Assembly: GCA_043772945.1 (NCBI GenBank)
Contig: JAYVFR010000021.1
Coordinates: 5,900 to 69,899 of the forward strand
Direction of reading: 5' to 3'
DNA length: 64,000 bases
Source of the DNA: Minisyncoccota bacterium
Lineage (GTDB): Bacteria > Patescibacteriota > JACMRA01
Position numbers and translations under genes: made by a program. This document shows, one piece after another, positions 2,234 through 62,325 of this stretch (positions are counted from its first letter, which is position 1; the number at the start of each line of letters is the position of its first letter). The notes under the pieces are model-generated. The model ran no database searches, had not been told where the DNA came from, and was given only the letters and a program-made list of their open reading frames with translations.

Positions 2234-3082
2234 ATGTCCGTGCATACTGAAATTTTTAAGAAAGCTTCTAAAACTTATTACTATTCTAATATCTTTTTTC
2301 CTCCTAAAATTCAAATAAAGATCTCAAGACTCTATTCTTTTGTGAGGATTGCTGACGATTACGTGGACTCTGTTCCTCAGAATAAACAAGCATTTTTGGA
2401 ATTACGCTCTAATTATAATGGTTTGCTAAATGATAAAAGTTACCAGATGAGCTTTGTAAACTCTAATCAATTAGATTTTGAGATTATACAAAGTTTCATA
2501 AATTTAATTAACGAAGAAGGTTTTGACTTGAAATGGGTCGAGGCTTTTTTGGATTCAATGGAACTTGATACTAATCCTGATTTTATTTATCAAACAATGA
2601 CTCAAACCAAAAAATATATTTACGGTTCAGCTAGTGTTATAGGGCTTTTTGTGGCAAAAATTTTAAATTTAGATGAGGCTTCTTATAAAGGAGCGACGCT
2701 GCTTGGTGATGCTTTCCAGTATATTAATTTTATTCGGGACATTGCAGAGGATGTTGTGCTCAATAGATGTTATTTCCCAAAAACTGAATTAGAAAAATTT
2801 GATTTATTAAATCTTACAAAAGAGGAGTGCTACGAGAAACCAGAGAATTTTAAGAGGTTTATGGAGGCTCAAGTTTATACTTATTCAAAATGGCAACTGA
2901 AAGCTGAGGAGTATTTTAAATATATTCCCAAAAAATACCGTATTGCTATAGCGACCGCTAGTGATATGTACGCTTGGACAGGTCTTGAAATCTCTCGGGA
3001 TCCATTTTTAGTATTTCAAAAGAAAGTTAAACCGAGAAAAAGAAGAATCTTTTTAACAGCTCTAAAGAATTTGCTGAGGTAA
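2234..3082 (+). CDS. phytoene/squalene synthase family protein (head-to-head trans-isoprenyl diphosphate synthase)
   Basis: First Asp-rich motif YSFVRIADDYVDS and second motif YINFIRDIAEDVVLNRCYFP. The 282-aa length is typical for CrtB/HpnD. Confidence 0.7.
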   Translation: MSVHTEIFKKASKTYYYSNIFFPPKIQIKISRLYSFVRIADDYVDSVPQNKQAFLELRSNYNGLLNDKSYQMSFVNSNQLDFEIIQSFINLINEEGFDLKWVEAFLDSMELDTNPDFIYQTMTQTKKYIYGSASVIGLFVAKILNLDEASYKGATLLGDAFQYINFIRDIAEDVVLNRCYFPKTELEKFDLLNLTKEECYEKPENFKRFMEAQVYTYSKWQLKAEEYFKYIPKKYRIAIATASDMYAWTGLEISRDPFLVFQKKVKPRKRRIFLTALKNLLR

Positions 3083-7176: not shown

Positions 7177-7212
7177 TAAAAACAAATAGCAACAAATTTT
7201 TTTACATTGCTT

Positions 7213-7243
7213 CCCTGAATTATCAAGTTCGGGGATTTTTTTT
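7213..7243 (+). terminator. intrinsic terminator, family T1 (CCCTGAA-8 nt loop-TTCGGGG-A-T8)
   Basis: 7-bp stem with one G-U pair, followed by a T8 run. A homologous copy lies at 25201-25232 on the other strand and carries a compensatory stem change. Confidence 0.6.
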
Positions 7244-9339: not shown

Positions 9340-11433
9340 ATGCAAGCTAAAGAAATCAAAATTAATCAATTTCTATCTTCTCAAGGTACAAAGTTTATTA
9401 TACCAGTTTATCAAAGAAATTATGACTGGAAACAAAAACAATGCCAACAGTTATTAAGTGATATCGAAAATATAAATCCAAAGTTAGGCTACTTTATTGG
9501 TTCTGTTGTTCATAAATCTAAATCTAATCTAACTGAAATAAGAGAATTAGTTATAATTGATGGTCAACAAAGGCTAACAACCCTGACACTTTTTTTATAC
9601 GTAATTTCGGAAGTTTTTCAAAAAAACAACGACAGACAATTTCAACAAATATTAGATTATTACATTTTCAACAAGTACGACACTTCAAGTGTTAAATTAA
9701 AATTAAAACTAATAGATAGCGATTTTAAAACCTTAGATGATCTTATTAATAATAATTCAACTAAAGAACCTGACGGCAATCGATTATTAGAAAACTACTT
9801 ATATTTTAGAGAAAAAATTGATTCGCACGAGCTAGCTAAAAAACTTTATTATAATTTTGGACAACTTATGATTGTTGAAATTGCTCTAGATGAAAAAGAT
9901 AATCCACAAAAGATTTTTCAGAGTCTCAATTCTACAGGTCTTGAGTTATCTCAAGCAGACCTAATTAGAAATTATATCTTAATGGATTTGGATTACAATT
10001 TACAAGAAAATATTTACAAAAACTACTGGTCAATAATTGAATCAAATTGCAAAGATAAAAACACCAATGAATCCAAAATGTCATTCTTTTTTAGAGATTT
10101 TTTGACATTTAAATTTAATAAAATACCCTCGTATAACAAGGTTTTTGATGAATTCAAAAGTAGATACCCATCAAATTCATCAGACATTGAAGATCTAAAG
10201 CTATCCCTTGAAGAAATAAAACGTTTTTCAAGCAATTACAACAAATTTATTAACTATGGCAAAGTAACGGATCTTGAAATAAAAGCTGAGTTAAGGAATA
10301 TTGATATGATTGAAGTGTCTGTTTGTTATCCTTTTTTATTGGGTATATTTGACGATTTTGAAAACAACAAAATTTTAAAACTTGAGCTACTAGAGATTCT
10401 AAAGTTAATCCAATCTTTTGTATTTAGAAGATTTATCTGTAATTTACCTACCAATGCTTTGAATAAAATATTCATGACATTTTGGGCAAATGCGTGGAAA
10501 CTCAAAAATAAATACCCAAGTATTTCACTATATCAAGCGACTGCAAAAATACTTTGTGACTATGGGAATACTATGCAATTTCCTAAAAATGAAGAAGTCA
10601 AAAAAAACCTACAGATTCGAGACATCTACAAATCCCAATCAAAAAATAAACAATATTTGTTTGAAATGTTGGAGAATAATTATTCTAAATTCATTGAAAA
10701 TAAAATTGATATTACAAAAAATAAAAGTTTATCAATAGAACATATTTTTCCACAAAATCCTAGTGATCTATGGCGAAGTGAAATAAACAGCGATGAAGAA
10801 TATGAAAACCTAAAAGTTTTGTCTAACACATTGGGTAATTTAACAATTGTAATAAACAATTCAAGCCTTAGTAATAAATCCTTTATTCAAAAGCGTGATA
10901 TGAATACAGAATTGTCTAAAGGGTATCGATATAGTAAGTATCACCTAAACGAAACTTTGATTAATCTTGAAGGTTGGAACTTGAATGAATTAAACAACAG
11001 GTCAAACTTATTAATTGAAAAATTCATTGAAATTTGGGCTTATCCTCAACTTCAGATTGACTTAGATAACACGGAGCAAGAACTAGACATTTTGGATATT
11101 GAAAATCCAACATTTTTGAAGCCTGAGTATATACTTTTGAACGAAAATAAAATCAATGTAAGCTCTAATATAGGAGTAATTATTGAAGTGCTAAAAAATA
11201 TTCATAATTCAGAACCCGAAGCACTTTTTATACCAATTATTAAAGATTCGTTTGGGATAACTCGAGACATTGCAACCTTAAGAAAACCTACTAAGATTGC
11301 AGATGGAATCTATGCTGAGAGCAATTATTCATCCAAAGAGCTGTATTCTAGGATTAAAATTTGTATTGAGAATTGTGATTATACAATTGATCTAAGAATA
11401 AAATTCAAGTCAACAGACACTAATCAAGATTAA
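9340..11433 (+). CDS. GmrSD-family type IV restriction endonuclease (DUF262 + DUF1524)
   Basis: N-terminal IPVYQRNYDW and IDGQQRLTTL (ParB-like DGQQR). C-terminal SIEHIFPQNP...LGNLTIV...NSSLSNKSF (His-Me/HNH-like DUF1524). Confidence 0.85.
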   Translation: MQAKEIKINQFLSSQGTKFIIPVYQRNYDWKQKQCQQLLSDIENINPKLGYFIGSVVHKSKSNLTEIRELVIIDGQQRLTTLTLFLYVISEVFQKNNDRQFQQILDYYIFNKYDTSSVKLKLKLIDSDFKTLDDLINNNSTKEPDGNRLLENYLYFREKIDSHELAKKLYYNFGQLMIVEIALDEKDNPQKIFQSLNSTGLELSQADLIRNYILMDLDYNLQENIYKNYWSIIESNCKDKNTNESKMSFFFRDFLTFKFNKIPSYNKVFDEFKSRYPSNSSDIEDLKLSLEEIKRFSSNYNKFINYGKVTDLEIKAELRNIDMIEVSVCYPFLLGIFDDFENNKILKLELLEILKLIQSFVFRRFICNLPTNALNKIFMTFWANAWKLKNKYPSISLYQATAKILCDYGNTMQFPKNEEVKKNLQIRDIYKSQSKNKQYLFEMLENNYSKFIENKIDITKNKSLSIEHIFPQNPSDLWRSEINSDEEYENLKVLSNTLGNLTIVINNSSLSNKSFIQKRDMNTELSKGYRYSKYHLNETLINLEGWNLNELNNRSNLLIEKFIEIWAYPQLQIDLDNTEQELDILDIENPTFLKPEYILLNENKINVSSNIGVIIEVLKNIHNSEPEALFIPIIKDSFGITRDIATLRKPTKIADGIYAESNYSSKELYSRIKICIENCDYTIDLRIKFKSTDTNQD

Positions 11434-19457: not shown

Positions 19458-19925
19458 ATGCCTGATGTTAAATACCCTAAACCAAAAATTGAATCAATAG
19501 CTCCAGATTTTAATGCAGAAAACCAAAAAGGTGAGACTATTTCTCTCAAAAAACTTCTGAAAAGTGGTCAAAAAGTTTTGCTAGTTTTTTATCCTGCTGA
19601 TCAAACTGCTGGTTGCACGACCCAGCTCTGTGGAGTTCGAGATGTTTTCCAAGATTATAAAAAAGCTGGTGTAACAATACTCGGCATTAATCAGGCAGGT
19701 GCTGAATCTCATAAGAAATTTATTGATAAAAATAATTACCCTTTTGATATTTTAATAGACACCGATAGGAAAATTAGTGAAAATTACGGACAACTTAAGT
19801 TTATGTTTGGACATAAATCTATTAAACGGGGAGTTTATTTGATTAATACTGACGGGAGCATTCTTTATACCATTCAAGGTCAACAGGATAATCAACTAAT
19901 CCTAGATTTACTAAAAAATGATTAA
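19458..19925 (+). CDS. bcp: thiol peroxidase, Bcp/PrxQ type peroxiredoxin
   Basis: VLLVFYPADQTAGCTTQLCGVRD peroxidatic Cys motif. Confidence 0.85.
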   Translation: MPDVKYPKPKIESIAPDFNAENQKGETISLKKLLKSGQKVLLVFYPADQTAGCTTQLCGVRDVFQDYKKAGVTILGINQAGAESHKKFIDKNNYPFDILIDTDRKISENYGQLKFMFGHKSIKRGVYLINTDGSILYTIQGQQDNQLILDLLKND

Positions 19926-21261
19926 ACAAATGACTAAGCAAGAAGAAAAGTTCTTGGAGCTTTATAATAAACTAAACCCAAATCAAAAAAAATCAGTTGA
20001 CACAATAGAAGGTGTAGTAATTGTGAATGCTGGCCCTGGAACTGGTAAGACTCAACTTCTTTCTCTCCGTGTGGCTAATATTTTAAGGCAAACTGACACT
20101 AATCCTTACAATATTCTTTGCTTAAGTTATTCTGATGCCGCAGCTCGCAATATGAGAGAAAGGCTTGTTGGTATGATAGGGTTTGAAGGGAATAAAGTTG
20201 GAATTTATACTTTTCATTCTCTTGGGGTTGAGATAATTAATCAGAATCCTGAATATTTTTTTGGAGGAAGTGTTTTTATACCAATTGATTCAGTAGGGCA
20301 AAGGCAGATTTTAAACAAAATTTTTGATAAACTACCAAATAATAATTCTCTGAATAGTTATCATCCTAGCATGGGTTATACTTATCTAAAAACTTGCGAA
20401 AAATATATTGGAAACTTGAAACAAAATGGTTTATCAGTCAATGAAATTAAACAAATTTTAAGTTTAAATAAAGAATATTTAGATTCTGTTGAAAAGCTTT
20501 TTGAAAATGTTTTTGATACTAGGATTAGTGGAGTTACAACATTAGAATTAATTAAAATATTTGGCGAATTATCAGCCTTAAATCTTGTTAATCAGTATGT
20601 TAAAGCAGGGCAAAGTATTTTTTGGCATTATAATCTTCATAATCAAATCTTGGAGTCTCTTAAGGACTGTTTGGAAGAAGTCCAAGTTTCTTTAAAAACT
20701 AATGCAATAACTAAATGGAGAGATAAATTCTTTGCTAAAAATAAAGCTGGGCAATACAAATTTATTGACTTATTAAATTATGAGAAACACTTAGCTTTTA
20801 GTAATATTTATCAAGATTATCAAAATGAATTAAAACATAAAGGATACTATGATTACAATGATATGTTAATGGAAGTAATTAATGCTCTTGAAAACTGTGA
20901 TTTTAGTGAGCTTAAATTTAATCTTCAGGAGAGGTATCAGTATATTTTAGTTGATGAATTTCAAGATTCTAATGGGGTGCAAATTAGATTAATTGAGAAT
21001 TTATTAAGTACTTTTGGAGCTGATGATAATCCAAATATTTTAATCGTTGGAGATCCTAAACAAGCAATTTATAAGTTTCAAGGAGCTTTGGGTGGGAATA
21101 TTGGTGAGTTTGCAAGTAGGTATAGCAATAGTAAGTTGATTAATTTAGATATTAATTATCGCTCGAACCAAGAAATTCTAGACCTAGCCCAAAAAATTAT
21201 TGACTTATCAGTTGAGATAGATTCAGAGTTTCGCATGCAACTTAAGGCTGTAAAGTTATAA
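19918..21261 (+). CDS. UvrD/Rep-family helicase, N-terminal half only (motifs I-IV)
   Basis: NAGPGTGKTQ (Walker A), YILVDEFQDSN (motif II), ILIVGDPKQAIYKFQGA (III) and NYRSNQEIL (IV). The ORF ends at 447 aa, so motifs V and VI are absent. Its ATG overlaps the bcp stop (ATGATTAA). Confidence 0.8.
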   Translation: MIKQMTKQEEKFLELYNKLNPNQKKSVDTIEGVVIVNAGPGTGKTQLLSLRVANILRQTDTNPYNILCLSYSDAAARNMRERLVGMIGFEGNKVGIYTFHSLGVEIINQNPEYFFGGSVFIPIDSVGQRQILNKIFDKLPNNNSLNSYHPSMGYTYLKTCEKYIGNLKQNGLSVNEIKQILSLNKEYLDSVEKLFENVFDTRISGVTTLELIKIFGELSALNLVNQYVKAGQSIFWHYNLHNQILESLKDCLEEVQVSLKTNAITKWRDKFFAKNKAGQYKFIDLLNYEKHLAFSNIYQDYQNELKHKGYYDYNDMLMEVINALENCDFSELKFNLQERYQYILVDEFQDSNGVQIRLIENLLSTFGADDNPNILIVGDPKQAIYKFQGALGGNIGEFASRYSNSKLINLDINYRSNQEILDLAQKIIDLSVEIDSEFRMQLKAVKL

Positions 21262-25200: not shown

Positions 25201-25232
25201 AAAATAAAATCCCCAAACTTGATAATTTAGGG
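25201..25232 (-). terminator. intrinsic terminator, family T1 copy (minus strand: CCCTAAA-TTATCAAG-TTTGGGG-ATTTTATTTT)
   Basis: Homologous to 7213-7243. The G-C pair there is replaced by A-T here (both partners changed). Same 8-nt loop. Lies just 3' of the minus-strand gene 25251-25934. Confidence 0.55.
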
Positions 25233-25250
25233 AAATAAACGGAATTTTAA

Positions 25251-29574: not shown

Positions 29575-30759
29575 TTACAACCTTTGAATATCTAATTGGA
29601 ATTTTTCGGTGCTGAAATCTTTGCTAGAATTTTTGATTTTATCAATCTTCCAGTTGTTAGTTTTATCTAGTTCTTGGAATTTTAAAATCGCGTTTTTGAG
29701 AGAATTTATTGTTTGTTCTTTAAACAAAACTCCATTTTCACCGTTTTTAATGTATTCTAAAGCCCCACCTTCCCCAAAAGCAATTACAGTCACGCCGCTA
29801 GCTAAAACTTCAATTGGTGTGATTCCAAAATCCTCTTTGCCAGGAAATAAAAAAGCACTACAAGTTTCTAATAAATTAAAATACTGCTTCTCGCTAGTTC
29901 GTCCTAGGAATTCTACTAAACCAGCTTTTTCAGGGTTTTTCGAGACATAGTCGTCTACTTGATTTTTTAGATCGTTCATTTGCTCGATCATTCCTGAGAC
30001 TCCGCTAATTTTGAGTTTTATACCGAGTTCAAGACAGGCTCCGATAGCTAAATCAAGGCGTTTATGAAAGCTAATTCTGCCATGGCAAAGAAAGAAAGGC
30101 TCTGTAATACTTATTTTTCTGATTAGCGGCAGAAACTTTTCAAGTTCAATTGGTGGGTAAATGACTACAGAATCAGTGTTATAAATTTGTTTGATTGTTT
30201 GTTGAATGAAAATTGAATTAGCCACCCAAATACACCCAACAGAATTAAGATATCTAGCAGCTTTTTGATCAAGAGGTTTAAGGAAAAACTTAAAAATTGG
30301 AATAAGAATTCTGTACAAGTAAGGTAGGGATTTATGGTCTGCTTCGGTTACTAAGCCATTTAAGTATCTTGTAGGGGAGTGGCAATAATGAATAATTTTA
30401 GGGCAATTACGAAAGCGGACTTGCTTGGCACAATCAGTAGAGGAAATAATTACTAAATCATAATTTTTGATTGTTGTAAGTCTCATCAGAACTGGATAAA
30501 GCCAAAATAAGTGCTTTTGGAATTTGGCTAAAACTCTTTGATTCTTAAATTTTAGGTTATACAAAGTTTGAATAACGGTGTTAAAAACTCTTTTTTCGTC
30601 AAAAGCTTTTTTAATATTAATTGCTGATTGGAATTTCTCAGGTGTGCTAAAGCTGGTATAAACGTCAGCGCTTGGATAAATCTCTAGTAAACTGTCCACC
30701 ACTTTCTCGGCTCCACCATTTTGAAATAAAAAATCATGTACAATTGCAACTCGAGTCAT
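29575..30759 (-). CDS. GT4-family glycosyltransferase
   Basis: MTRVAIVHDFLFQNGGAEKVV start. The C-terminal EDFGITPIEVLASGVTVIAFGEGGALEYI matches the EX7E region. Confidence 0.8.
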   Translation of the reverse strand: MTRVAIVHDFLFQNGGAEKVVDSLLEIYPSADVYTSFSTPEKFQSAINIKKAFDEKRVFNTVIQTLYNLKFKNQRVLAKFQKHLFWLYPVLMRLTTIKNYDLVIISSTDCAKQVRFRNCPKIIHYCHSPTRYLNGLVTEADHKSLPYLYRILIPIFKFFLKPLDQKAARYLNSVGCIWVANSIFIQQTIKQIYNTDSVVIYPPIELEKFLPLIRKISITEPFFLCHGRISFHKRLDLAIGACLELGIKLKISGVSGMIEQMNDLKNQVDDYVSKNPEKAGLVEFLGRTSEKQYFNLLETCSAFLFPGKEDFGITPIEVLASGVTVIAFGEGGALEYIKNGENGVLFKEQTINSLKNAILKFQELDKTNNWKIDKIKNSSKDFSTEKFQLDIQRL

Positions 30760-37093: not shown

Positions 37094-37135
37094 GCCTTGT
37101 AACTATTTTTGGTTCTCTTCCCGTACACTTTTCGG

Positions 37136-37168
37136 GTCTTTTGTTTCAAACAAGAGGCTCATTTTTTT
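37136..37168 (+). terminator. intrinsic terminator, family T2 (GTCTTTTGT-TTCAA-ACAAGAGGC-TCATTTTTTT)
   Basis: 9-bp stem with two G-U pairs, then a T-run. A near-identical copy lies at 38674-38707. Confidence 0.65.
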
Positions 37169-37232: not shown

Positions 37233-38228
37233 ATGATAGAATTAACTACTAAACAAATTGTCGATTTAAGATCTAAATTAATGAATAATGTTGATGTGTT
37301 GCTAGAAAACATTGTAGCACGTCGTGAAACTAAAAAGAATAAATCAGAAGATATTTTTGGGTTTGATAGTGATGAGGCGCCTTTAATTGTGTGGAAAGGT
37401 AACTTGGCTAATTATACGTCTTTTGATATTTTGCAGATGGAGAAATCAACGCTTGGTGTTTATCTATCAGGAAATCCGCTTGATGAATATAAACCAATTG
37501 AAAATTATTATAGACAGGCTACGGGAGAAGTGGAAACTCTTTTTATTGTAATTGTAGAGAAAATGAAAAAGATTTTTACAAGAAATGGTGGAATGATGCT
37601 TGCACTTACTCTAATTACTCACGGCGGGGAGTACGAGGGGTTGATTTTTCCTAAAAATTCAGCACTTTATACGCCAACTTTGGATGAAAAAGAATTGTAT
37701 TGGGTGATTGGGCGAATTGAAGATAAAACCAAAAAAAAATCAGATTCTAAACAAGACTCAAAAGAAAACTCCAACGATGAAACCAAAGATGACAAAGAAA
37801 ACGAAAGCAGTGAATATCAAGAGAAACCTAAATTGCTAGTTCAACATCTAGCAAAGTTTGAAGTGGGGGTTTTAGAACTATTTAGAACAGATCCTCGTAA
37901 AACTAAAACTGAAGAAGCAATTAGCAGATATTTAAATCTTGATTGGATTGAGCTAAAGAAAAACCCAAAAAAGTTTGAAGAAATGCAGAATATTAAAGCA
38001 GAGCAAATTAATAGCTACACTCCTGAGCATTTACCGAGGATTGAAATAACTCGTAACTTAAATAGAGAATTAGTATCTGAAATTAAGAACGCTTTGAAAA
38101 AAGTCCCGTTTAAAAATTCTCTGGCAGTGGAAATTTTTGTGGAAAATAATTTAGGAGAACTTAAAAAAGCCAAAGGAGATTTCTGGATTGATACCGATTT
38201 GTTTAATAGACTAAATGAGTCTGTCTAA
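37233..38228 (+). pseudogene. dnaE: DNA polymerase III alpha subunit, C-terminal fragment only (OB-fold and C-terminal region)
   Basis: DIFGFDSDEAP...FDILQMEKSTLGVYLSGNPLDEYKP, then an OB-fold-like FTRNGGMMLALTLITHGGEYEGLIFP. This corresponds to about the last quarter of DnaE. No PHP or polymerase core lies upstream. Confidence 0.8.
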
Positions 38229-38615: not shown

Positions 38616-38673
38616 ATTTTTAGTTTCAAGTGTTTTTGTTCTTTTGATAAGTTTTATCCTCAAACCTCCTTGG

Positions 38674-38707
38674 GTCTTTTGTTTTAAACAAGAGGCTCAT
38701 TTTTTTT
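38674..38707 (+). terminator. intrinsic terminator, family T2 copy
   Basis: Same stem as 37136-37168, with loop TTTAA instead of TTCAA, then TCA + T-run. Confidence 0.65.
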
Positions 38708-47871: not shown

Positions 47872-48827
47872 ATGTTGGACAAACTTTCCATTCAAATCTC
47901 ACATTTATTGATCTGTTCGCTGGTATTGGTGGTTTTCATCTTGGATTGCATAATCTAGGATGAAATGTGTTTTTGCAAGTGAAATTGACAAACATGCTCG
48001 AAATACCTACCAAACTAACTTTTCTAGCATTAGCCCAGAGCTTTTTGATAATAACAACAAATTATTCAATGAAGATATCACAACGATAGACCCAAAAGAA
48101 ATTCCAGACTTTGACATTTTGTGTGGGAGGGTTTTCATGTCAGCCCTTTAGTAACGCTAGTTTTAAGAAAGGTTTTGAAGATACTAGAGGAACTTTGTTT
48201 TTCAATATTGCTGAAATAATAAGAGTAAAACAACCAAAAGCATTTTTTTTGGAGAATATAAGAGGATTACTTAACCACGACGACGGCAAAACTTTTGAGA
48301 CAATTCGTAGAGTGATTGAAGATGACCTTGGGTACTCATTTTATTACAAAATTGTCCATGCGAGTGATTACGGTATGCCACAATTCAGACCTAGAGTATG
48401 TATTGTAGGTTTTAAAAATCATAGATTAAGCTTTGAATTTCTTAGTAAAACTCCACTTCAGTTCACAATGTCAGATGTATTTGGTGGAAAATGTAATAAA
48501 GAAATTGGTTTTACTCTCCGCTGTGGTGGGCGAGGTTCTAAAATCACTGATCGTCGAAACTGGGACAACTACCTTGTTAATGGTATAACTAGACAATTAA
48601 TGCCAAAAGAAGGCAAGAAAATGCAAGGATTTCCTGATAATTTTATACTACCAAATTCAGTTACTCAAGCAATGAAACAACTAGGTAATAGCGTTGCTGT
48701 TCCAGCGATTCAAGCCGTTGTTAAAGAAATTCAAACTGTACTACAGCGAGATCCAAGTAAGTACACAGAACAGGAATTTGAACAATTTTTACAAGTTAAG
48801 CAAGTCTCATTATTCCAATTTGCATGA
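47872..48827 (+). pseudogene. C5-cytosine DNA methyltransferase, M.HpaII-like, inactivated by several frameshifts and one in-frame TGA
   Basis: GAGGAGG SD just before ATG 47872. Motif I TFIDLFAGIGGF is in one frame. At 47956-47962 CTA GGA TGA AA TGT sits where M.HpaII-type enzymes read LGGKC. KCVFASEIDKHARNTY is in a second frame. DFDILCG then has one extra base before GFSCQPFS (expected PCQ). ENI and QLGNSVAVPAIQ are intact downstream. Confidence 0.85.
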
Positions 48828-52403: not shown

Positions 52404-52493
52404 TTATTTAAAATAAAACAGGTTATACATAGCTAGAGTTAGTCCATTTTCTCCAATTGCTTTAAAATTTTTGATTGTGATTGAGTTGAGCAT
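52404..52493 (-). pseudogene. 29-codon remnant of an AAA/ABC-like (AAA_15/OLD/RecF-like) ATPase N-terminus
   Basis: MLNSITIKNFKAIGENGLTL is the typical xxIxIxNFKxI start of such ATPases. The reading frame then runs into dispersed-repeat copy 1 (..AMYNLFYFK*). Confidence 0.45.
52421..52434 (+). repeat. dispersed repeat copy 1 (GGTTATACATAGCT)
   Basis: Core shared with the copies listed below. Forms the 3' boundary of the ATPase remnant. Confidence 0.7.
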
Positions 52494-53166: not shown

Positions 53167-53438
53167 TATTTTTTAAGTATATTTAGTCAATTAAACACGT
53201 ACATGGTAGTTTGTCAAAGTATAATATACTACTATATAAAAACCTCTAATGATGAACAAAAGAGGTGGCGTGTTTTATGAAAACAAAACTTATGCCAGAT
53301 CTTTTATTGTTAGGGAAGAAAGTATTAAAATAATCTATTTGAAAATCATATTATTTAATTAGGTAGGAATCAGGTTTATTTACCCTTGTATAGTTACATT
53401 ATTTAAGTTTAGAATTTTATTTTTGACCAGACGTTTTA

Positions 53439-53462
53439 ATTAGACCAAGCATTAGACCAAGC
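53439..53462. repeat. tandem duplication ATTAGACCAAGC x2
   Basis: Exact 12-mer repeated head to tail. Confidence 0.9.
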
Positions 53463-53473
53463 TTAATAGTATA

Positions 53474-54239
53474 ATGTCTGATTCATTTCCAGTTCCAAAA
53501 AATTTTGGAGAGCCAAGTAAAACAAAAGTTGTTAACTTTGAGAAACCTTTAACTGGCGAGGAGCTACACAGTTCAAAAGTTTTAGAAGAAACTCTTCCCC
53601 CTGAAAAAGTAAGAGAAATTCATGTAACACTAAGCGAGAGACTGGAAGCGTTAAATTTTTTTAGAACTAATTTGGGTTTAACACAAATTTCTTTACCTAA
53701 AATTGTTTGGGAGAACATTGAAACTGTTGCTTGTGTTGAATTTTCAAATAGCGGTAGCGTTCTCAAACTAATCCAAAGAGGTTTTTAGAAATACCAAAAA
53801 AAGAAGCAGCTTATTTACTAACTCATGAACTTGTACATTTATCTGACAAAAACAGAGTTTTTAAAAACCAAAAATATTATAGGAATATGTCAGGTATGAG
53901 ATTTGGTAATTTAAAATGGAAGTAATTCCAAATACAAGAAACGATTTGAATGAGGCTTTAACTGAGTTTTTGACTGATATTATTACTCATCAATCTGTTG
54001 GAAGTGAGATTCCACGAAAAAGGTATGGTTACCAAGAATGGAGAATGAAAATTCATAATTTTTATAACAATCTAAATCCTTCTTTTCAACACGCTTTCTT
54101 AATAGCTGTAATTGAATCGAAGCAAGTTTTAGGATCTGTATCACCGCTTTATAAATTTATGTGTGAGTATAATATTAAAAGTAGTAAAAAAAGCCCAAAG
54201 ATTTTAGATATTTTTAATTTGAAAGCTTTTGAGATTTAA
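53474..54239 (+). pseudogene. putative gluzincin-type metalloprotease gene broken by two frameshifts
   Basis: Three consecutive frames read through: ...VLKLIQRGF / EIPKKEAAYLLTHELVHLSDKN...GMRFGNLKWK* (the shift falls within the last few codons) / MEVIPNTRNDLNEALTEF... This gives HExxH plus a downstream NEALTE. The shifts lie near 53785 (in a GGTTTTT run) and near 53915. Confidence 0.5.
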
Positions 54240-54250
54240 ATTTATTAAAC

Positions 54251-54265
54251 AGATTATACATAGTT
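54251..54265 (+). repeat. dispersed repeat copy 2 (AGATTATACATAGTT)
   Basis: Core TTATACATAG, preceded by an AT-rich AAATTTATTAAAC tract like copies 1, 3 and 4. Confidence 0.65.
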
Positions 54266-54364
54266 AAACTAAAACAAAAATACTCAGATTTAAAGTTTTC
54301 TCGGGGATTTTAGACTTTTTTTCATATTTTTAGCTTAAAATACTCTCAGATCAAATAAATATTT

Positions 54365-54379
54365 AGATTATACATAGTA
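54365..54379 (+). repeat. dispersed repeat copy 3 (AGATTATACATAGTA)
   Basis: Core TTATACATAG, 114 bp after copy 2. Confidence 0.65.
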
Positions 54380-54444
54380 TAAAAATAAGGTATATAGGTA
54401 AAAAAATCATTAAAAAAACAAGTTAATTAGAAGTGAGAAAATTA

Positions 54445-54466
54445 ATTCTATTCTAATTCTATTCTA
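54445..54466. repeat. tandem duplication ATTCTATTCTA x2
   Basis: Exact 11-mer repeated head to tail. Confidence 0.9.
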
Positions 54467-54560
54467 AAAACTTGTTGAGGTTTATTCACAAACTAGTTAC
54501 GCATTGGATTGTTTAAAAATGGATGTATTTTAAAATACTCAATTTATATAGCTCAACAAT

Positions 54561-54588
54561 AATTAGATTTATTTAATTAGATTTATTG
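54561..54588. repeat. tandem duplication AATTAGATTTATT(T/G) x2
   Basis: 14-bp unit, 13/14 identical. Confidence 0.85.
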
Positions 54589-54969
54589 CTAAGTTAAGTT
54601 TTCCTAATCTCTCTAGCACAATGATTGGTGAGAGCACCAAAATTGCTAAAATGATGTATTGGTTAGCGATTCCAATTAATGTTTTTTTCATACCAGTTTG
54701 CGGAATAAAGGAACCACCGTTCTCAATAGAAATAAAAGATTACTGGTACAATCAAAAAAATGAAAGGGCTGTGTAGCAATGTTACTAGAGCTTTTTGACT
54801 TTTAGTTTTAACATTATCAACAGACAAATTAAATAAATGTCCTCCATTTAGAATTAAAAGAAAATATATGTAAAAAAAACCAGCTAAAAAATGACTGGAA
54901 AAGTTAGGTTAAATCTAAACTAAGTTAGTTTTGAATTTACAAATAATTTAACATATTAAACCCATATTT

Positions 54970-54995
54970 TTCAAACGTATTATTCAAACGTATTA
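54970..54995. repeat. tandem duplication TTCAAACGTATTA x2
   Basis: Exact 13-mer repeated head to tail. Confidence 0.9.
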
Positions 54996-55466
54996 AAGTC
55001 GCGGCTGTCTGTTGTAAAGTCATCATGAACATATCTTTTAATAATTTCATCAGTCTATATATCATTCTCTACTTCAATCACGATAATTTGCTCTTCTAAT
55101 TGGTAGGTAATATTTTGAAAATTAAAGCTTTCTGTTGAATTGCTATCTTTTTTTTTTAATAAAAAGACTTTTTTATTTATATAACAAAAACCATCTATTA
55201 CCAATTGGTCTGGTCCTTGAAACTCTCTCTTTAAACTTTTGTCTTTTAGTTTTTCAAGAAGTGGAGTTTTACAAGTAACGGGTTTATTTCTTCCTGAGAT
55301 TAGTTTTTCTTTTTTTTAGTTTCATTTGTTTCTAGTGTTGAATTCATACAGAATAAATTGTGAGGTAAATTCACATAATTACTTCGGCATATATTTTAAT
55401 CAAAAATAGATATTACTATCGGTCCAAGAACGAATTATAAGAATTAAATATTTAATGAATAAAATA

Positions 55467-55489
55467 GGTTATACATAGTTTCATAGTTT
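55467..55489 (+). repeat. dispersed repeat copy 4 (GGTTATACATAGTTTCATAGTTT)
   Basis: Shares GTTATACnnAGTTTCATAG with the reverse complement of 56801-56823. Confidence 0.8.
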
Positions 55490-55540
55490 AACTATTTATT
55501 TACTCTATTGTGCTAGATCTTTTTTTGAGTATTTTACTTT

Positions 55541-55569
55541 CCCCAGTTTTAAGGTTATACATAGTTTCA
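55541..55569 (+). repeat. dispersed repeat copy 5 (CCCCAGTTTTAAGGTTATACATAGTTTCA)
   Basis: 26/29 identical to the reverse complement of 57136-57164. Confidence 0.85.
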
Positions 55570-55711
55570 TAATTTTTTATTTTATTGTTGCTTTTTTTAA
55601 TTCTCAATATTAGTTGAATATCATTTATTGTAAGATTTTATAAAAACAAATTTTAGCTAATTTTAAAAAAATATTGTCAATTACTAGATAGTTTAATAAC
55701 TCTATTATTCT

Positions 55712-57421
55712 ATGACTTCAGAATTAAATCTTTTTTCAAAACCAGAATTACCTCAAAACATAATTTCAGACCCAAATTTAAACAAAGGCATTTCACAAAT
55801 CCCAGAAGTAAATTCCGAAGACTTAGATACTAGTTACTATTATGAAGTTTTAGTTCCGCTAAAATTACCTAATCCAATTTTAACATATTCTTCAAATAAG
55901 TTTTTGGAGGTGGGTTTAATTGTAGATATTTTAGTTAGAAATAAAGAAATCAAAGGTATAATCTGGAAAATTTTAGACAATACTGAAAATAAAGTGAGTG
56001 ATTATTTTCTTCAAAATAAGATCCAAATTCAAGTTATACGAAGTTTCACATATAATAACAGCGAAAGATCTGGGAATACAATTAAAATAAAGCTATCAAA
56101 GAAGACAATAGAGTTTTTAAAGTTAATTTACTTACATTCTTTTAACCAATTAGGAGTAATATTAGAAAGTTTTTTGTTACCTTACACCCAATTATCAAAT
56201 AAATCTTGGAGTAAAATTCAATTAGAACTAGAAAAACAAACAAAACATCAAATAAATTCAAGTACACAAACATCACAAGAGTTAAAAGAACACTCAAATC
56301 AAGCTGTTACGACTTCATTTAAAACGACTAATAATCTTATTAATAAAGAAGTTAAAAACAATTCACAATTTATTTCCTTTGAGGTTAATCAATTAGTAGA
56401 ATATATTAAAATTCGTATAATGGTTCTTATACGAAGTAACATTAATGCATATTTGATCAATAAAAACGATATAATAGAGAAAAAGATTAGTTTAAACCCG
56501 ATTGTTATTGACCTAAATCTTTTACAAATAATTCCAGAAAAAAAATACTTAAAAGTAATTCAGAGAGAATTTAATTGGAAACTAATAACTCAAGCTTTTG
56601 AAAGAGAGTTTAATTTATTAGAAGAGTTTAAAAACCAAAATTTTAAGATTAACATAATAAGCAATAGTTTTAATTATAGTGAAAAAAGTTCTGAATCTCA
56701 GACCTTAATTTCCAAGCTTATTTTTTTAAATTTAAAACAAGATCAGAGCTGTTTAATTAAAAGTGACAAAATTAATAAGAAAACTGAACAAGATCATAAA
56801 AGCTATGAAACTTCGTATAACTCAAATATTTCGTTAAACGTCCCTAATGTTGATATTCTAATAAACTTAAATATTTATACAGGAAGTCGAAGTATTATGT
56901 TTCTACCTTTTGAGTTTGTTGATTTAATTTATTTATTTGATGAAGGAAGTAGCTATTATATTCAAGAACAAAATAGTTTGTACTATGACACCCGTGAATT
57001 AATTTATTACTTTGCAAGAATTTACAGCTCTAGTTTATATCTAATAAGTAATCATCAATCTACTAGAGCTTATCAATACCAAAAAACTTTATTGACTTCT
57101 CCGACCTTAAAAAAAAAGTTAGACACTGAGAGTATTGAAACTTCGTATAACCTTAAAACTGAGGAAAATATTAAAATTAGCTATAACACGGCTAGTGTTG
57201 TTATTGCTGAAACTATCGAAGAAAAAAAATTAGAAAAACAATACTCTGAGAGCTTAGAAAATGAGTTTTTTGGTGACTCTGACTATTATGATAATGAAAA
57301 CACTCAAAAGTCTCTCAGAATTAATCTGGTGAAGCGGAGTTACTTCAATGCGTCAATAACTGATATCTTTTCTTTTGAAGTGGACCAAATAATCAAAAAA
57401 GAACTTGGCTTGGAAGATTAA
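55712..57421 (+). CDS. PriA-derived protein: N-terminal 3'-DNA-binding-like domain plus a degenerate first RecA domain. Catalytic motifs are lost and the C-terminal half is missing
   Basis: YYYEVLVPLKLPNPILTYSS...VGLIVDILVRNKEIKGIIW parallels the PriA N-terminus. IYTGSRSIMFLPFEFVDLIYLFDEGSSYYIQEQNSLYYDTRELIYYFARI...LISNHQS parallels IVIGTRSALFxPFxNLGLIIxDEEHDxSYKQ...RYxARD...GSATPS. The Walker A position reads VLIRSNINAY. There is no Cys-rich region or second RecA domain. Confidence 0.6.
   Translation: MTSELNLFSKPELPQNIISDPNLNKGISQIPEVNSEDLDTSYYYEVLVPLKLPNPILTYSSNKFLEVGLIVDILVRNKEIKGIIWKILDNTENKVSDYFLQNKIQIQVIRSFTYNNSERSGNTIKIKLSKKTIEFLKLIYLHSFNQLGVILESFLLPYTQLSNKSWSKIQLELEKQTKHQINSSTQTSQELKEHSNQAVTTSFKTTNNLINKEVKNNSQFISFEVNQLVEYIKIRIMVLIRSNINAYLINKNDIIEKKISLNPIVIDLNLLQIIPEKKYLKVIQREFNWKLITQAFEREFNLLEEFKNQNFKINIISNSFNYSEKSSESQTLISKLIFLNLKQDQSCLIKSDKINKKTEQDHKSYETSYNSNISLNVPNVDILINLNIYTGSRSIMFLPFEFVDLIYLFDEGSSYYIQEQNSLYYDTRELIYYFARIYSSSLYLISNHQSTRAYQYQKTLLTSPTLKKKLDTESIETSYNLKTEENIKISYNTASVVIAETIEEKKLEKQYSESLENEFFGDSDYYDNENTQKSLRINLVKRSYFNASITDIFSFEVDQIIKKELGLED
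56033..56048 (+). repeat. dispersed repeat copy 6 (GTTATACGAAGTTTCA), in frame inside the priA-like CDS
   Basis: This exact 16-mer is the reverse complement of 56806-56821 and 57136-57151. Codon-aligned (V I R S F). Confidence 0.85.
56410..56433. repeat. perfect palindromic copy 7: TTCGTATAA-TGGTTC-TTATACGAA (9-6-9)
   Basis: The two 9-bp arms are exact reverse complements around a 6-bp spacer. The arms are the core of the dispersed repeat. The site encodes ..IRIMVLIRS.. at the expected Walker A position. Confidence 0.85.
56801..56823 (-). repeat. dispersed repeat copy 8 (reverse complement GAGTTATACGAAGTTTCATAGCT)
   Basis: Inverted relative to copies 4-6. Codon-aligned in the priA-like CDS (S Y E T S Y N S). 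Confidence 0.85.
57136..57164 (-). repeat. dispersed repeat copy 9 (reverse complement CCTCAGTTTTAAGGTTATACGAAGTTTCA)
   Basis: 26/29 match to copy 5 in inverted orientation. Shares the exact 17-mer CTTCGTATAACCTTAAA with 61202-61218. Confidence 0.85.
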
Positions 57422-57528
57422 AAGCTCTAAATAAGTAGTAAAGTCTGGATCGATTAAGATTTTCTCTATCCTTGACGATATAGATTTTGTCCGATGTTAC
57501 TAAGTTAGTAATTAGCCAGCAAAGTATA

Positions 57529-57807
57529 ATGAAAAAAAATGCCTTAAAAAAGTATCAAAACCTCAAACCAGGCGATGTCTTTTATATAATTGATAACTGT
57601 GATAAAAGAAAACCAAAAAAAATTCCAATTAGAGTTACCGAAAAAACTGATTTAGGAGACGACAAAACAGGATACGTCACAGAAGATGGAATTATAGTCT
57701 TCTATCAGTGTGATTGTTTAAGAACTTTCAGATTTAGATTTACTGTTCCTAAAGATTTTATCAATGTTAAAGATGAAAATCAATTTTATTATCTTTCTTT
57801 AGAATAA
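57529..57807 (+). CDS. hypothetical small protein
   Basis: The ORF is open from TTG 57487 and the first ATG is at 57529. Followed by a family T3 terminator. Confidence 0.4.
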   Translation: MKKNALKKYQNLKPGDVFYIIDNCDKRKPKKIPIRVTEKTDLGDDKTGYVTEDGIIVFYQCDCLRTFRFRFTVPKDFINVKDENQFYYLSLE

Positions 57808-57864
57808 AATAGGAAGATTATCAAACTAGATAAACCAACAAACTTTTCTCCCTAACCCCATAAT

Positions 57865-57897
57865 CCAGCAATTGATTTATATCTTGCTGGTTTTTTT
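57865..57897 (+). terminator. intrinsic terminator, family T3 (CCAGCAA-N12-TTGCTGG-T7)
   Basis: Perfect 7-bp stem plus a T-run. The flanks (AACCCC upstream, TTTATTCAAATATTTTTT downstream) recur at 59011-59046. Confidence 0.65.
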
Positions 57898-57923
57898 ATT
57901 CAAATATTTTTTTTATTCAAATA
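57891..57923. repeat. tandem duplication of about 16 bp (T7-8 ATTCAAATA x2)
   Basis: TTTTTTTATTCAAATA followed by TTTTTTTTATTCAAATA. Confidence 0.85.
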
Positions 57924-57980
57924 ATTAACACCATTCTTAAACTTTAAAGATAAACTTTATAAAAACTCCTTATATAATTT

Positions 57981-58337
57981 TCAAATTCTTGAGGAGACAT
58001 TATTAATTTTAGCCAAATCATTTAAAACTATCCAGGAACTACCAAAGCAATCATTAAATATTCTATTTTTTCGTACGTCCAAATTGCCATCAATTGAATT
58101 AGCGTTTCTGTGTTCGGGGTTCCAAAAATTATGCCTGATAGAATAATTTGGTTCAGTGTATCTGCGAGCTACAATATAAACAGTAACACGAATATTGCCT
58201 AAATGAAAATCAAAAACTATATTGCCTAAATGAAAATCAAAAACTTCAGAAGTTTGTACTTCCTGCACATTCTTTTCTTCCTTAGAATTATCAGGATCTT
58301 TAGGACCATTAGTTAATCTAATTAATTTACTTTCCAT
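57981..58337 (-). CDS. hypothetical protein containing an in-frame 27-bp tandem duplication
   Basis: VFDFHLGNI occurs twice. Overlaps the upstream ATP-grasp remnant by 11 nt. Confidence 0.4.
   Translation of the reverse strand: MESKLIRLTNGPKDPDNSKEEKNVQEVQTSEVFDFHLGNIVFDFHLGNIRVTVYIVARRYTEPNYSIRHNFWNPEHRNANSIDGNLDVRKNRIFNDCFGSSWIVLNDLAKINNVSSRI
58192..58244. repeat. tandem duplication: 26-mer ATATTGCCTAAATGAAAATCAAAAAC x2, 27-bp period
   Basis: 58192-58217 and 58219-58244 are identical. Confidence 0.9.
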
Positions 58338-58743
58338 CTATCTCTCTGTTTAAAAGGTTTAAAGATTGAAAATATTTTGATAGTCCAGTTTTATATAAAT
58401 TATAAACAATTCCCTCATCATTTTGCTCCAAGAAAATTGTAAGCCCTGGGTTAGTATTAATTTCAATCAAAGACATTATATTATTTCGATCTATTACAAT
58501 ATCAAGACCACACCAAAATATATTAAGTTTTTGAAAAATTGGATTTACAAACGATTGAACCTGCCTTTTAAAATTCAAATCAGAAATTAAAACAGCTTTA
58601 CTACCCTCCCAATGGAAAGGACTTAAATTACATTTATTTATCTGCTTATAAAGAATTGACATTCCCATATATATATGCCAGCTTCGAGGTGCTGGTTTTA
58701 AAAAAGACCGGCGCAAAAACGCACAACAAAGGGAAAATCTCAT
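58327..58743 (-). pseudogene. ATP-grasp enzyme, C-terminal part only (RimK-like)
   Basis: WCGLDIVIDRNNIMSLIEINTNPGLTIF matches the C-terminal ATP-grasp motif (GxDxx...xxEVNxxPG). There is no room upstream for the N-terminal and central domains. Confidence 0.5.
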
Positions 58744-58984
58744 GGAAACTGTTGCTAAAATCTACATCCGAGATAATTCAGATAGGCATTGGGAAAGGTT
58801 CGGTGAGAAAGTGGTGATTGCTAATCTTTTTCAAGATAATAATAAATACATTGGTGGCTATAGTGGAAGCTCCTTGAAAGAAGTTGAAAGCTGGTTAAAA
58901 AACGAAAAAATTTCTCACAGTACTTATATTAATGTACAAAATTTAAGTGTCGCACCAAATGGTGAAGTCTATTCTTGTAATTGA
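58742..58984 (+). CDS. hypothetical small protein
   Basis: 80-aa ORF followed by a T3 terminator copy. It occupies the place where the ATP-grasp 5' half would be. Confidence 0.4.
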   Translation: METVAKIYIRDNSDRHWERFGEKVVIANLFQDNNKYIGGYSGSSLKEVESWLKNEKISHSTYINVQNLSVAPNGEVYSCN

Positions 58985-59010
58985 TTATCCAAAGATTTTT
59001 TAACCCAACC

Positions 59011-60606: not shown

Positions 60607-62325
60607 TTAACTTCTATCAATAAATTCACTATGGCTTGCTGGATTTGGTTCCTTAGTAATTCTTATTCCTTCTAATAGCAGATCACTATCACAAGCAAGT
60701 TTGTTCATTATAAACATAGTTCTGCGAACATTGATATGACAACCACAAGTTGAACGAATCTTAGACAAATAACTTAATTCCTTAACTGAACCATGCATTA
60801 CAGTTCGAACGCTATGAGCAAAAGGTAGAAACTGAATTAATAAATACTCGGGAATATCAAGTTTTTGCTTGAGTTTTTTCCATAAAGTTTTAAGCTCTGA
60901 GTAATAATTTTGTAAATCTTTTTCAAATTCTACTCTCAAGTAATTATTTGCCTCCACACGAGTTAAGTAATCTGGCAAATGATAACCTTCCTTTAATAAA
61001 TTTTCATAACTATTCTGAATTTCCAAGAGTGGAGTAAATCTTCCCCAAGCCCTGTGTCTATTTAGATCCCTTGCCTCAGCAATACTTTGATTAATCTCAA
61101 ATGTATAACTATTAGTCTGGTATTGATTGCTCATTTGTTTATGTTGAGTAAAATTGCTCACTAGAACCTTACTAATCTCGGTTTTTTGAATATCACTTAA
61201 GCTTCGTATAACCTTAAATAAACTCTCAAAAGATAAGCTTGGATACAATGTAATGATATTTTGGACCAGAGTTTTCTCAGTTGCAGTATAGCTATTATCA
61301 AAAAACTTTACACCCAACTCTCTATAGTCTATAAAATTGGTTTTGTTCACACTTTGAATTTCATTTTGATCCTTTAGAAGCTTTGTTAAAATTTCATTTT
61401 GTTTCAAATAGTTATCAAGGTCTGCTAATGAATTTGTCTGAGTTTCATCACTTTGAGTATAGCGAATTAATTCTGAGGCTTCTGGGACATAACCAAGCTC
61501 ATCAGCAACAAGACTCTCTGGAGCAAAGAGCCATTCTAATTGCTCAGCTAAATAAACTAATTCATGATCTTTTTCACTTTTAAAAATTCCAATAAGTCGC
61601 GCCCATTCCCGAGCCGAAGTTATCCAAGCAAGACTTGTTCTATTCATAAAACCACTAGGTAAAAAATATCTGGCACTATCAAAAACCCTTGCATTAAGTG
61701 CATTTACTTGTCCTTTATTCTCAGTGTCAATTTCATAGTTTTTTGCATATTCAATTGTTAATTTTTTTACATAGTAATTATACTTAGAGAGAGAACTTTC
61801 TAGGAGAGTTTTAAATTCAGCGTTCAATTCCTTATAATTTTTATTTTGCTTAGTGCTTTCTCGCTTTTCAACTGGTAAATATTCACTCAATTCATTCAGA
61901 ATTAAATTATCAAATTTCTGGTAACGAGTCGATCTCTCCTGCCCTCCACCAAGGCTCGTTGAATAAAAGAATTTCCAAGCAAGTGCCTGAGGAACATTTT
62001 CGATATACGCAAAAAGATTTGCCATATCAGCTACGCTAGCATGACCATATTGGCGGAAAATCGTAGCCAGTTTCTCGTTTGCACCCTTTTGAGCGTTTTT
62101 AATCTCTTTAAACAAATTTATTGCCCCCAAGTCAGATCGTGAATAGCGAGCTCCTGCAAAGGCCATAATTGAAGCAACTTGTTTACCAGAATTAGGTAGA
62201 GCAGTCCTCAGCACAAAATTGGTTCGTGAATCAATTAGGGAAACCAAAACTAAATCAGTCTCATCGGGGCTAGTCATTTCAAATTTAAAATATTCAGGAA
62301 GTTTCTTAGAATTAGTTTGAGACAT
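60607..62325 (-). CDS. thyX: double-length ThyX-like (Thy1 domain) flavin-dependent thymidylate synthase homologue
   Basis: FAGARYSRSD, GGGQERSTRYQ (SxRY-like) and ARDLNRHRAWGRF (RHR motif). 572 aa, about twice a canonical ThyX. Confidence 0.65.
   Translation of the reverse strand: MSQTNSKKLPEYFKFEMTSPDETDLVLVSLIDSRTNFVLRTALPNSGKQVASIMAFAGARYSRSDLGAINLFKEIKNAQKGANEKLATIFRQYGHASVADMANLFAYIENVPQALAWKFFYSTSLGGGQERSTRYQKFDNLILNELSEYLPVEKRESTKQNKNYKELNAEFKTLLESSLSKYNYYVKKLTIEYAKNYEIDTENKGQVNALNARVFDSARYFLPSGFMNRTSLAWITSAREWARLIGIFKSEKDHELVYLAEQLEWLFAPESLVADELGYVPEASELIRYTQSDETQTNSLADLDNYLKQNEILTKLLKDQNEIQSVNKTNFIDYRELGVKFFDNSYTATEKTLVQNIITLYPSLSFESLFKVIRSLSDIQKTEISKVLVSNFTQHKQMSNQYQTNSYTFEINQSIAEARDLNRHRAWGRFTPLLEIQNSYENLLKEGYHLPDYLTRVEANNYLRVEFEKDLQNYYSELKTLWKKLKQKLDIPEYLLIQFLPFAHSVRTVMHGSVKELSYLSKIRSTCGCHINVRRTMFIMNKLACDSDLLLEGIRITKEPNPASHSEFIDRS
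61199..61218 (-). repeat. dispersed repeat copy 10 (plus strand AAGCTTCGTATAACCTTAAA), in frame inside the thyX-like CDS
   Basis: The 17-mer 61202-61218 is identical to 57141-57157. In the thyX sense strand it encodes F K V I R S L. Confidence 0.85.

Follow-up and report, generated by a model that had tools for sequence, protein, structure and literature searches.

The DNA examined here, referred to as the window, is a stretch of 64,000 nucleotides from a Minisyncoccota bacterium (contig JAYVFR010000021.1, positions 5,900 to 69,899) with a base composition of ∼31% GC. Toward its right end lies a long open reading frame (ORF) that derives, by its profile and fold matches, from PriA. Inside this ORF is a palindrome, TTCGTATAA-TGGTTC-TTATACGAA, whose perfect 9-bp arms and 6-bp spacer can be read directly from the window, and single copies of the arm are dispersed around it. 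We consider it likely that the palindrome is the chromosomal dif-type Xer site of an SR1/Gracilibacteria-like Patescibacterium. The YchF protein is 67% identical to the YchF of an SR1 metagenome-assembled genome (MAG) that also carries a PriA-like gene, and by sequence the organism falls, within the Patescibacteria, among the SR1/Gracilibacteria.

Profile searches and fold comparison agree on the origin of the host protein. NCBIfam priA models, including TIGR00595, match the host family, and a family profile aligns its RSxxFLPF..DE..Y.Q...Y..R block to the motif II region of Escherichia coli PriA (E 6.7e-5). The top nine fold matches of the host-protein model are all PriA; the model is a low-confidence AlphaFold2 (AF2) prediction, built from a 6-sequence alignment with a mean predicted local distance difference test score (pLDDT) of 51 and used for fold assignment only. 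The 3′-DNA-binding domain (PF17764) is matched weakly (E 0.054). The protein thus resembles PriA in its weak 3′-DNA-binding domain, in the motif II block of a degenerate helicase lobe 1, and in its fold matches, and differs from it in that lobe 2, the Cys-rich region and the PriA C-terminal domain are absent. Neither Walker A (GxxGSGKT) nor Walker B (DEEH) occurs in the ORF or in any homologue whose sequence was read; the position of the PriA DEEH is occupied by DEGS in the window protein, by DEAN in the family, and by IEES in the homologue at locus L057. Homologues are 360–570 amino acids (aa) long with the exception of L057 (808 aa), which retains lobe 2, the Cys-rich region, and the C-terminal domain of PriA yet likewise lacks the P-loop. 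The ratio of nonsynonymous to synonymous substitution rates (dN/dS) is 0.26 against the orthologue at locus L001 and 0.22–0.47 across five pairs, indicating a working protein under purifying selection rather than a pseudogene. On this evidence the family is a PriA derivative of wide occurrence, still under selection although its ATPase has been lost.

The palindrome encodes the peptide IRIMVLIRS, residues 234–242 of the ORF. Residue 225 of the L057 protein corresponds to position 27 of the TIGR00595 profile, and extrapolation puts the site peptide at approximately positions 4–12, that is, at the P-loop and the start of the helix that follows it; this placement is approximate and not residue-exact. 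An earlier note on this DNA, made from its sequence, had the peptide replacing the PriA P-loop (GVTGSGKTEVY), which is approximately right for the region and not for the exact residues. The same note had the repeat coincide with destruction of the P-loop. Read causally, this is not supported: every family member lacks the P-loop, so the order of events cannot be inferred. The sequence of the palindrome and its 9-6-9 architecture stand as first described, with coordinates shifted by two bases from the 56410–56433 then given (Table 1).

Taken by itself, the palindrome would mean little. The window has no other perfect 9-6-9 palindrome (n = 1), and first-order Markov simulations of the window give an expectation of 0.95 per 64 kb, with at least one in 60% of simulations. 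This agrees with the caution, already voiced in the earlier note, that a single palindrome may arise by chance in AT-rich DNA. Because about one is expected by chance, the significance of the site comes from comparison with relatives. Homologues of the host gene were collected from a protein search (4 loci), GTDB genomes (6), metagenomes (8), and a scan for exact arms (3); they span SR1, Gracilibacteria, and other Patescibacteria at protein identities of 26–59%. The same element occupies the same codons in every homologue found. All 19 of the aligned in-gene sites contain T-N-CGTATAA-N6-TTATACG at an identical codon position, with the consensus T-[TGA]-CGTATAA / T[GA]TA[TC][AC] / TTATACG-[ACT]-A-G-T. 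The central regions of the homologues are often TGTATA, which is the centre of E. coli dif, or TATACA.

Codon usage at the site indicates what is being conserved. Among 12 codon-aligned genes, the first arginine of the site is CGT in 12/12 and isoleucine is ATA in 12/12 at two columns, while the second arginine is CGA in 9/12. In the same 12 genes, three other invariant arginine columns use a mixture of AGA, AGG, CGA, CGC, CGG, and CGT, and one invariant isoleucine column is ATT in 10/12. Synonymous divergence (dS) between the window gene and L001 is 1.1, even though these are the closest pair. Frozen codons at the site, combined with well-diverged synonymous positions elsewhere, point to a constraint that acts on the nucleotide sequence. 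This 12-gene test took the place of a two-sequence comparison between the window and L001, which was too weak as proof of DNA constraint: at 69% nucleotide identity, several other 18-nt stretches are identical as well. The earlier interpretation was to fail if close relatives had an ordinary divergent sequence at this place; instead, the palindrome is kept and its synonymous positions are frozen.

The site also coincides with a switch in GC skew of the kind found at replication termini. In the window, skew is +0.047 to the left of the site (z +6.3) and −0.066 to its right (z −3.2), and the cumulative maximum lies 1.5 kb from the site. Across 23 loci with symmetric flanks, a positive-to-negative switch reaches z > 2 in 14 and z < −2 in 0 (Stouffer z 11.2). 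This statistic is unchanged by reverse-complementing and is therefore independent of locus orientation. A replication origin is ruled out by the positive-to-negative direction of the switch at the site, and neither dnaA nor dnaN was seen in Pfam scans of the window.

Relatives further link the site to a recombinase. In Peribacteria and Peregrinibacteria (40–61% GC), identical arms surround a TGCATT or TGTATG centre outside any PriA-like gene. These sites are flanked by stop codons in the corresponding frame, and they too lie at a skew switch. In six such loci the start of a Xer-family gene is 30–130 bp from the site. In two loci that carry the site inside the PriA-like gene (L124 and L002), a Xer-family gene lies 6–7 kb away and has an arm-like half site 48–65 bp upstream of its start. 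Its product matches PF00589 and PF02899; XerC, XerD, and XerA models score about equally, and XerS scores weakly.

Chromosomal dif sites are defined by a 6-bp central region between two arms of 11 bp with partial symmetry, and by their location at the terminus (PMC5357621, PMC2958812). The 9-6-9 core plus two bases on each side gives the same 11-6-11 layout, with 10 of the 11 arm positions symmetric. In its 28-bp length, terminal position, and inner ...ATAA/TTAT... the site resembles the dif sites of E. coli (XerC/XerD) and Bacillus subtilis (CodV/RipX). The window site agrees with E. coli dif (GGTGCGCATAATGTATATTATGTTAAAT, PMC3025954) at 17/28 positions and homologous sites do so at 19–22/28; the highest value belongs to L002 (22/28), whose arms match at 9/11 and 7/11 positions and whose TGTATA centre matches at 6/6. 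For comparison, the agreement of accepted dif sites of archaea with the bacterial consensus is 14–18/28 (PMC2958812). The site differs from the dif sites of E. coli and B. subtilis in the almost complete symmetry of its arms, a hint at one recombinase instead of two, and in lying within a conserved coding gene, whereas theirs are intergenic.

Single-recombinase modules offer a second comparison. In streptococci and lactococci, xerS immediately adjoins difSL (PMC5357621), and the Peribacteria arrangement of an identical-arm site next to a Xer-family gene is alike. Unlike difSL, with its 11-bp centre, the sites described here have a 6-bp centre, and their arms are unrelated to those of difSL or of difH (XerH/difH in Helicobacter and Campylobacter). 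In the lineage of the window, moreover, the site is away from xer and inside the PriA-like gene. The archaeal XerA/dif system is likewise built of nearly perfect inverted arms, which read TATAA...TTATA on the inside and enclose a 6-bp centre, as in the Thermococcus kodakarensis dif TTTTGATATAATGTACCTTATATGACAA (PMC11840125), whereas the host here is a bacterium. Among the contigs found by the exact-arm genome scan are many from DPANN and Methanosarcinales, and these have TGTATA or TATACA as the centre.

A comparison with lox had also been made in the earlier note. The loxP site, ATAACTTCGTATA-ATGTATGC-TATACGAAGTTAT, has a 13-8-13 layout and shares the 12-nt string AACTTCGTATAA with the window site, and both would be tyrosine-recombinase core sites. 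The window site, in contrast, is laid out as 11-6-11, its symmetry ends after 9–11 bp, and it is chromosomal, terminal, and vertically inherited. With a 6-bp spacer and no Cre-like gene in the window, the lox comparison does not hold. The more general suggestion of a tyrosine-recombinase core site is supported by the sequence comparisons, and it is quite probable that the type is Xer/dif and not lox.

The arms are indeed, as had been proposed, the core of a dispersed repeat family. TTCGTATAA occurs 6 times in the window against 0.55 expected, a count reached in 0/100 shuffles. A position-weight scan of the window finds 11 strong copies of TATGAAACT[TA][CT]GTATAAC[CT]T, scoring 21–29 bits, and the next match scores 11.3. 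The core ACT[TA][CT]GTATAA has conserved flanks that extend the motif to ∼26 nt, TATGAAACTTCGTATAACCTTAAAAC. By sequence the repeat is a family of single-arm half sites. We rejected the idea that these are degenerate full dif sites, as no second arm is found 6 bp past each copy. Of the copies in the window, five lie between genes and six within coding sequence, where frame and strand vary (Table 1), and most cluster tightly within 4 kb of the site. At the place that matches the 56804 half site, the distant homologue L003 has ACTTCGTATAAT, encoding TSYN.

The half sites follow a strict rule of orientation. To the left of the site 8/8 copies are on the minus strand and to its right 3/3 are on the plus strand, so that in every copy the TATAA end is directed away from the site. 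This outward-facing rule also holds in L001, L002, L003, L124, L034, and L129. Pooled over 25 loci, exact TTCGTATAA occurs 37 times outside the site against 8.2 expected, with 30 copies facing outward and 7 inward.

Two of the half sites are extended by a 35-nt inverted repeat (55535–55569 and 57136–57170), 89% complementary with its copies 1.57 kb apart, which brackets most of the PriA-like gene nearly symmetrically about the palindrome. At position 57137, 2/4 of the sequencing runs holding the locus carry G>A, which changes the outer flank of a half site from TTGAAAC to TTAAAAC and leaves the motif core unchanged.

Table 1. Positions in the window of the candidate dif-type site, its host gene, and the half sites
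Feature	Position	Strand	Remarks
Coding sequence (CDS) of a 569-aa PriA-derived protein without Walker A/B	55712–57421	+	Pfam, NCBIfam, profile, and fold matches; hosts the site (codons 234–242) and three half sites (peptides VIRSF once, ETSYN twice)
28-bp dif-type site (candidate), AATTCGTATAA TGGTTC TTATACGAAGT	56410–56437	+	sequence, codon conservation, skew switch, xer-linked arms in Peribacteria
Left arm of the site	56410–56420
Central region of the site	56421–56426
Right arm of the site	56427–56437
9-6-9 core of the site	56412–56435
Half site GTGAAACTTCGTATAACT	56030–56050	-	inside PriA-like CDS, opposite-strand motif, encodes V-I-R-S-F; L001 variant ATTATACATAGTTTCA
Half site ATGAAACTTCGTATAACT	56804–56824	+	inside CDS, encodes E-T-S-Y-N; conserved in L001 (ATCAAACTACGTATAACC)
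Half site TTGAAACTTCGTATAACC	57134–57154	+	inside CDS, encodes E-T-S-Y-N; conserved in L001; right arm of the 35-nt inverted repeat with 55535–55569
Half site	55551–55571	-	weight-matrix scan and repeat search
Half site ATGAAACTATGTATAACC	55465–55485	-	intergenic, 86 bp from the 55551 copy
Weaker half site ATACTATGTATAATC	54364–54384	-	intergenic, score 21.1
Weaker half site TAACTATGTATAATC	54250–54270	-	intergenic, score 23.1
Half site TAGCTATGTATAACC	52419–52439	-	between xseA-like and ygjP-like genes, score 25.2
Distant half site TTCAAACTTTGTATAACC	30553–30573	-	in glycosyltransferase ORF
Distant half site ATGAAACTTTGTATAATC	2480–2500	-	in squalene/phytoene synthase-like ORF
Half site CTTAAGCTTCGTATAACC	61195–61215	+	antisense in ThyX-like ORF

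From the sequence, conservation, codon freezing, and skew position of the site, and from its xer linkage in relatives, we infer Xer binding, dimer resolution, and whatever function the half sites have. A Xer-family tyrosine recombinase would bind both 11-bp arms and exchange strands across the 6-bp centre, and in this way would resolve dimeric chromosomes at the terminus of replication. That the arms are almost perfectly symmetric, and that one xer gene stands beside the same site in Peribacteria, suggests a single-recombinase system. Embedded in frame in the PriA-derived gene, the DNA site would dictate the peptide [VIFL]-R-I-x-x-x-I-R. The two sister copies being identical, an exchange between them gives back the original sequence, and the gene would thus remain undamaged.

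The half sites may bind Xer monomers without recombining and serve as accessory sites that mark the terminus, as XDS do in B. subtilis. As Karaboja et al. reportedly described in 2021 (cited in PMC10945525 and PMC11894783), XDS are isolated sites apart from dif that are bound by Xer without recombination. The half sites are likewise isolated single-arm copies in the terminus region; they differ from XDS in being tightly clustered and strictly polar, with several in coding sequence. XerD bound to XDS unloads SMC complexes in the B. subtilis terminus (as cited in PMC10945525, PMC11894783, PMC11840125).

Several points weigh against reading the palindrome as dif. Pfam scans found no tyrosine recombinase gene in the 64-kb window or ∼9 kb past its right end; in contrast to the systems of E. 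coli and B. subtilis, the available sequence shows no cognate recombinase. The 56 kb on the left of the site and the 17 kb on its right contain no xer gene, and the adjacency that characterizes XerS/difSL and XerH/difH modules is absent here. No second full site occurs in the window even with 3 mismatches, a count limited to 64 kb of the chromosome. Centres in the clade of the window (TGGTTC in the window, TAGCTC in L001, and TGAACC in L003) deviate from the T[GA]TA[TC][AC] of the other homologues. The 12 homologues share ancestry, so that 12/12 codon counts do not represent 12 independent events. The terminus is called from GC skew over tens of kb rather than from a complete genome with a mapped origin, and the XDS-like role possibly played by the half sites is purely an extrapolation by analogy. 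The coding location is itself atypical, as ∼94% of predicted bacterial dif sites were non-coding in a hidden Markov model survey (PMC3025954).

The earlier note had further envisaged recombination between the site and its half-site copies. No recombination junctions at the site or the half sites were found in the assembled contigs of the four runs that hold the locus, from which rare forms would escape. One contig is colinear across the whole region, and the two joints listed rest on 20–21 nt anchors away from the palindrome. The lack of junctions at the site is what dimer resolution would produce and is therefore uninformative.

Other explanations of the palindrome can be weighed against the same observations. 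It could be a by-product of protein constraint, if the helix after the lost P-loop needs R-I-x-x-x-I-R and its AT-rich coding DNA merely chances to spell an inverted repeat that does nothing as DNA. R235, I236, I240, and R241 are indeed invariant in the family, the peptide falls in a helix predicted by the model, and one perfect palindrome per window is expected by chance. Synonymous positions, however, are frozen at the site and only there (CGT in 12/12, ATA in 12/12 twice). Identical arms stand beside xer, outside any PriA-like gene, in Peribacteria, and the site coincides with the GC-skew switch; we regard a mere protein constraint as exceedingly improbable. A transcript of the gene could form a 9-bp stem with a 6-nt loop, and AT-rich lineages always have the site in the same frame of the same gene, as might be expected of an RNA hairpin acting as a processing, stability, or translational pause signal in the PriA-like mRNA. 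Against this stands the pattern of variation: arm position 2 changes from T to G or A with no compensation in its partner, so that the pair is broken in 11/19 sites without covariation, and what is conserved is the stem sequence rather than its pairing. Rfam has no match in 54000–58500, single-arm copies on either strand cannot fold in this way, and the same sequence stands outside any PriA-like gene in Peribacteria; a hairpin function is highly unlikely. The palindrome could instead belong to another DNA-based system, whether as an operator to which some dimeric regulator binds, as the place where an element integrates, or as a switch that inverts DNA with the half sites as its partners. Palindromic operators are common, integrating elements use dif sites themselves (PMC5357621), the flanking 53–59 kb is GC-poor (25–26%) and rich in orphan ORFs, as integrated elements often are, and the 35-nt inverted repeat brackets most of the gene. 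This group of explanations remains unlikely when set against the lack of a second full site in the window and of junctions in the four assemblies, the neighbouring gene in Peribacteria, which encodes a Xer-family recombinase and not a regulator, and the deep vertical conservation in a chromosomal gene at a skew switch, which misfits a mobile attachment site.

For the half sites alone, a different role is possible, though we hold it to be the less likely one. They may be polar barriers to forks or translocases, comparable to Ter/Tus or RTP, or KOPS-like orientation signals, or else non-functional relics. Their strict flip of orientation at the site and their clustering within a few kb of it have the geometry of a fork trap or polar guide, and the ∼26-nt motif is longer than one Xer arm. 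Its core, on the other hand, is identical to the dif arm, and the simplest reading of this is that one protein binds both; signals of the KOPS type are short and occur along whole replichores, whereas these copies are long and local; and no Tus or RTP homologue was seen, though none was sought. The site and the PriA remnant might also form a functional unit in which an ATPase-dead protein acts with Xer at the terminus. The PriA-derived protein, which is under purifying selection and retains fork-DNA-binding domains, could then be an accessory factor in place of FtsK-type activation or act on forks that converge. Machines coming from the origin would be halted or unloaded by the half sites, whose outward orientation makes them a polar array, and a dif inside a needed gene would penalize integration by dif-hijacking elements. 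We offer this extension of the dif reading as a rather doubtful conjecture.

Matches to the palindrome outside this lineage deserve separate mention. The same 9-bp arms occur in archaea, among them Methanosarcinales and the DPANN groups Woesearchaeota and Nanoarchaeota (L006, L008, L015, L028, L050, L063, L068, L074, L086, L111, and others); these are probably candidate XerA dif sites, which would mean that the arm sequence is shared across domains. In Faecalibacterium (L031, L054, L087, L098, L118, and L119), TTCGTATAA and TTATACGAA recur around CGTG[CT]A or CCTACA with conserved flanks (tcgctcccct...), and either a dif of these genomes or a site at which some element attaches may be represented here. 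Short contigs assigned to Marinifilum caeruleilacunae carry ATAACTTCGTATAATGTACATTATACGAAGTTAT (L055, 386–409 and 536–559, twice within 150 bp; L116, 392). This sequence is lox-like, with the 13-bp loxP arms and a symmetric spacer, and may be the remnant of a cloning vector in the assembly. A CALAOR01 MAG (L030, L109, L110, and L120) has the palindrome at least 5 times, spread over four contigs and with spacers that differ; its behaviour there is that of a repeated element and not of a single dif.

Several features of the window lie around or beyond the site. The GC-poorest stretches, 53200–55700 and 57420–59000 (25–26% GC), flank it and contain only short orphan ORFs, together with a C-terminal ATP-grasp fragment (58327–58743). 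Their appearance is that of a terminus region in decay or in rapid evolution, or else of what is left of inserted elements. An alternative genetic code was rejected as the reason for the short ORFs near the site, since gene calls under code 11 and code 25 are the same. Throughout the window (1–64000) TGA ends no long ORF and stands in frame in no credible gene, all stops being TAA or TAG; TGA seems unused as either a stop or a sense codon. SR1/Gracilibacteria relatives read TGA as glycine. Defence genes occur near the terminus: a GmrSD-type restriction endonuclease (9340–11433) and, just past the right end of the window, a Type ISP restriction-modification enzyme (1451–1628 aa; L138, 85–4440). 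A UvrD-like ORF (19918–21261) encodes only 447 aa, and a C-5 cytosine methylase ORF (48111–48827, 238 aa) covers its Pfam model partially, in two stretches; both may be truncated genes or pseudogenes. Two 35-nt direct repeats (37134–37168 and 38672–38706; GGGTCTTTTGTTT[CT]AAACAAGAGGCTCATTTTTTT, 97% identical) flank the ORF at 37233–38228 and look like hairpins followed by a T run. A 33-nt inverted pair containing GGGGATTTTTTTT (7211–7243 and 25202–25234, 91% complementary, 18 kb apart) probably represents similar terminators.

Xer/dif systems are well known; what would be new here is the in-frame fixation of the site in a conserved gene and the polar array of half sites. In the papers returned by our literature searches, dif is described neither for SR1, Gracilibacteria, or other Patescibacteria nor inside a priA-like gene. 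The archaeal dif search was confined to non-coding inverted repeats (PMC2958812); an intergenic-only search would miss a site such as this one, and annotators would take VRIMYIIRS for a protein feature. A dif has apparently been kept inside conserved coding sequence over very deep divergence, in which case the target of a recombinase dictates a protein motif. For these uncultured bacteria with small genomes, in which few landmarks of replication have been established, the site would serve as a marker of the terminus, and the polar half-site array is a candidate for terminus organization, whether by SMC unloading or fork trapping.

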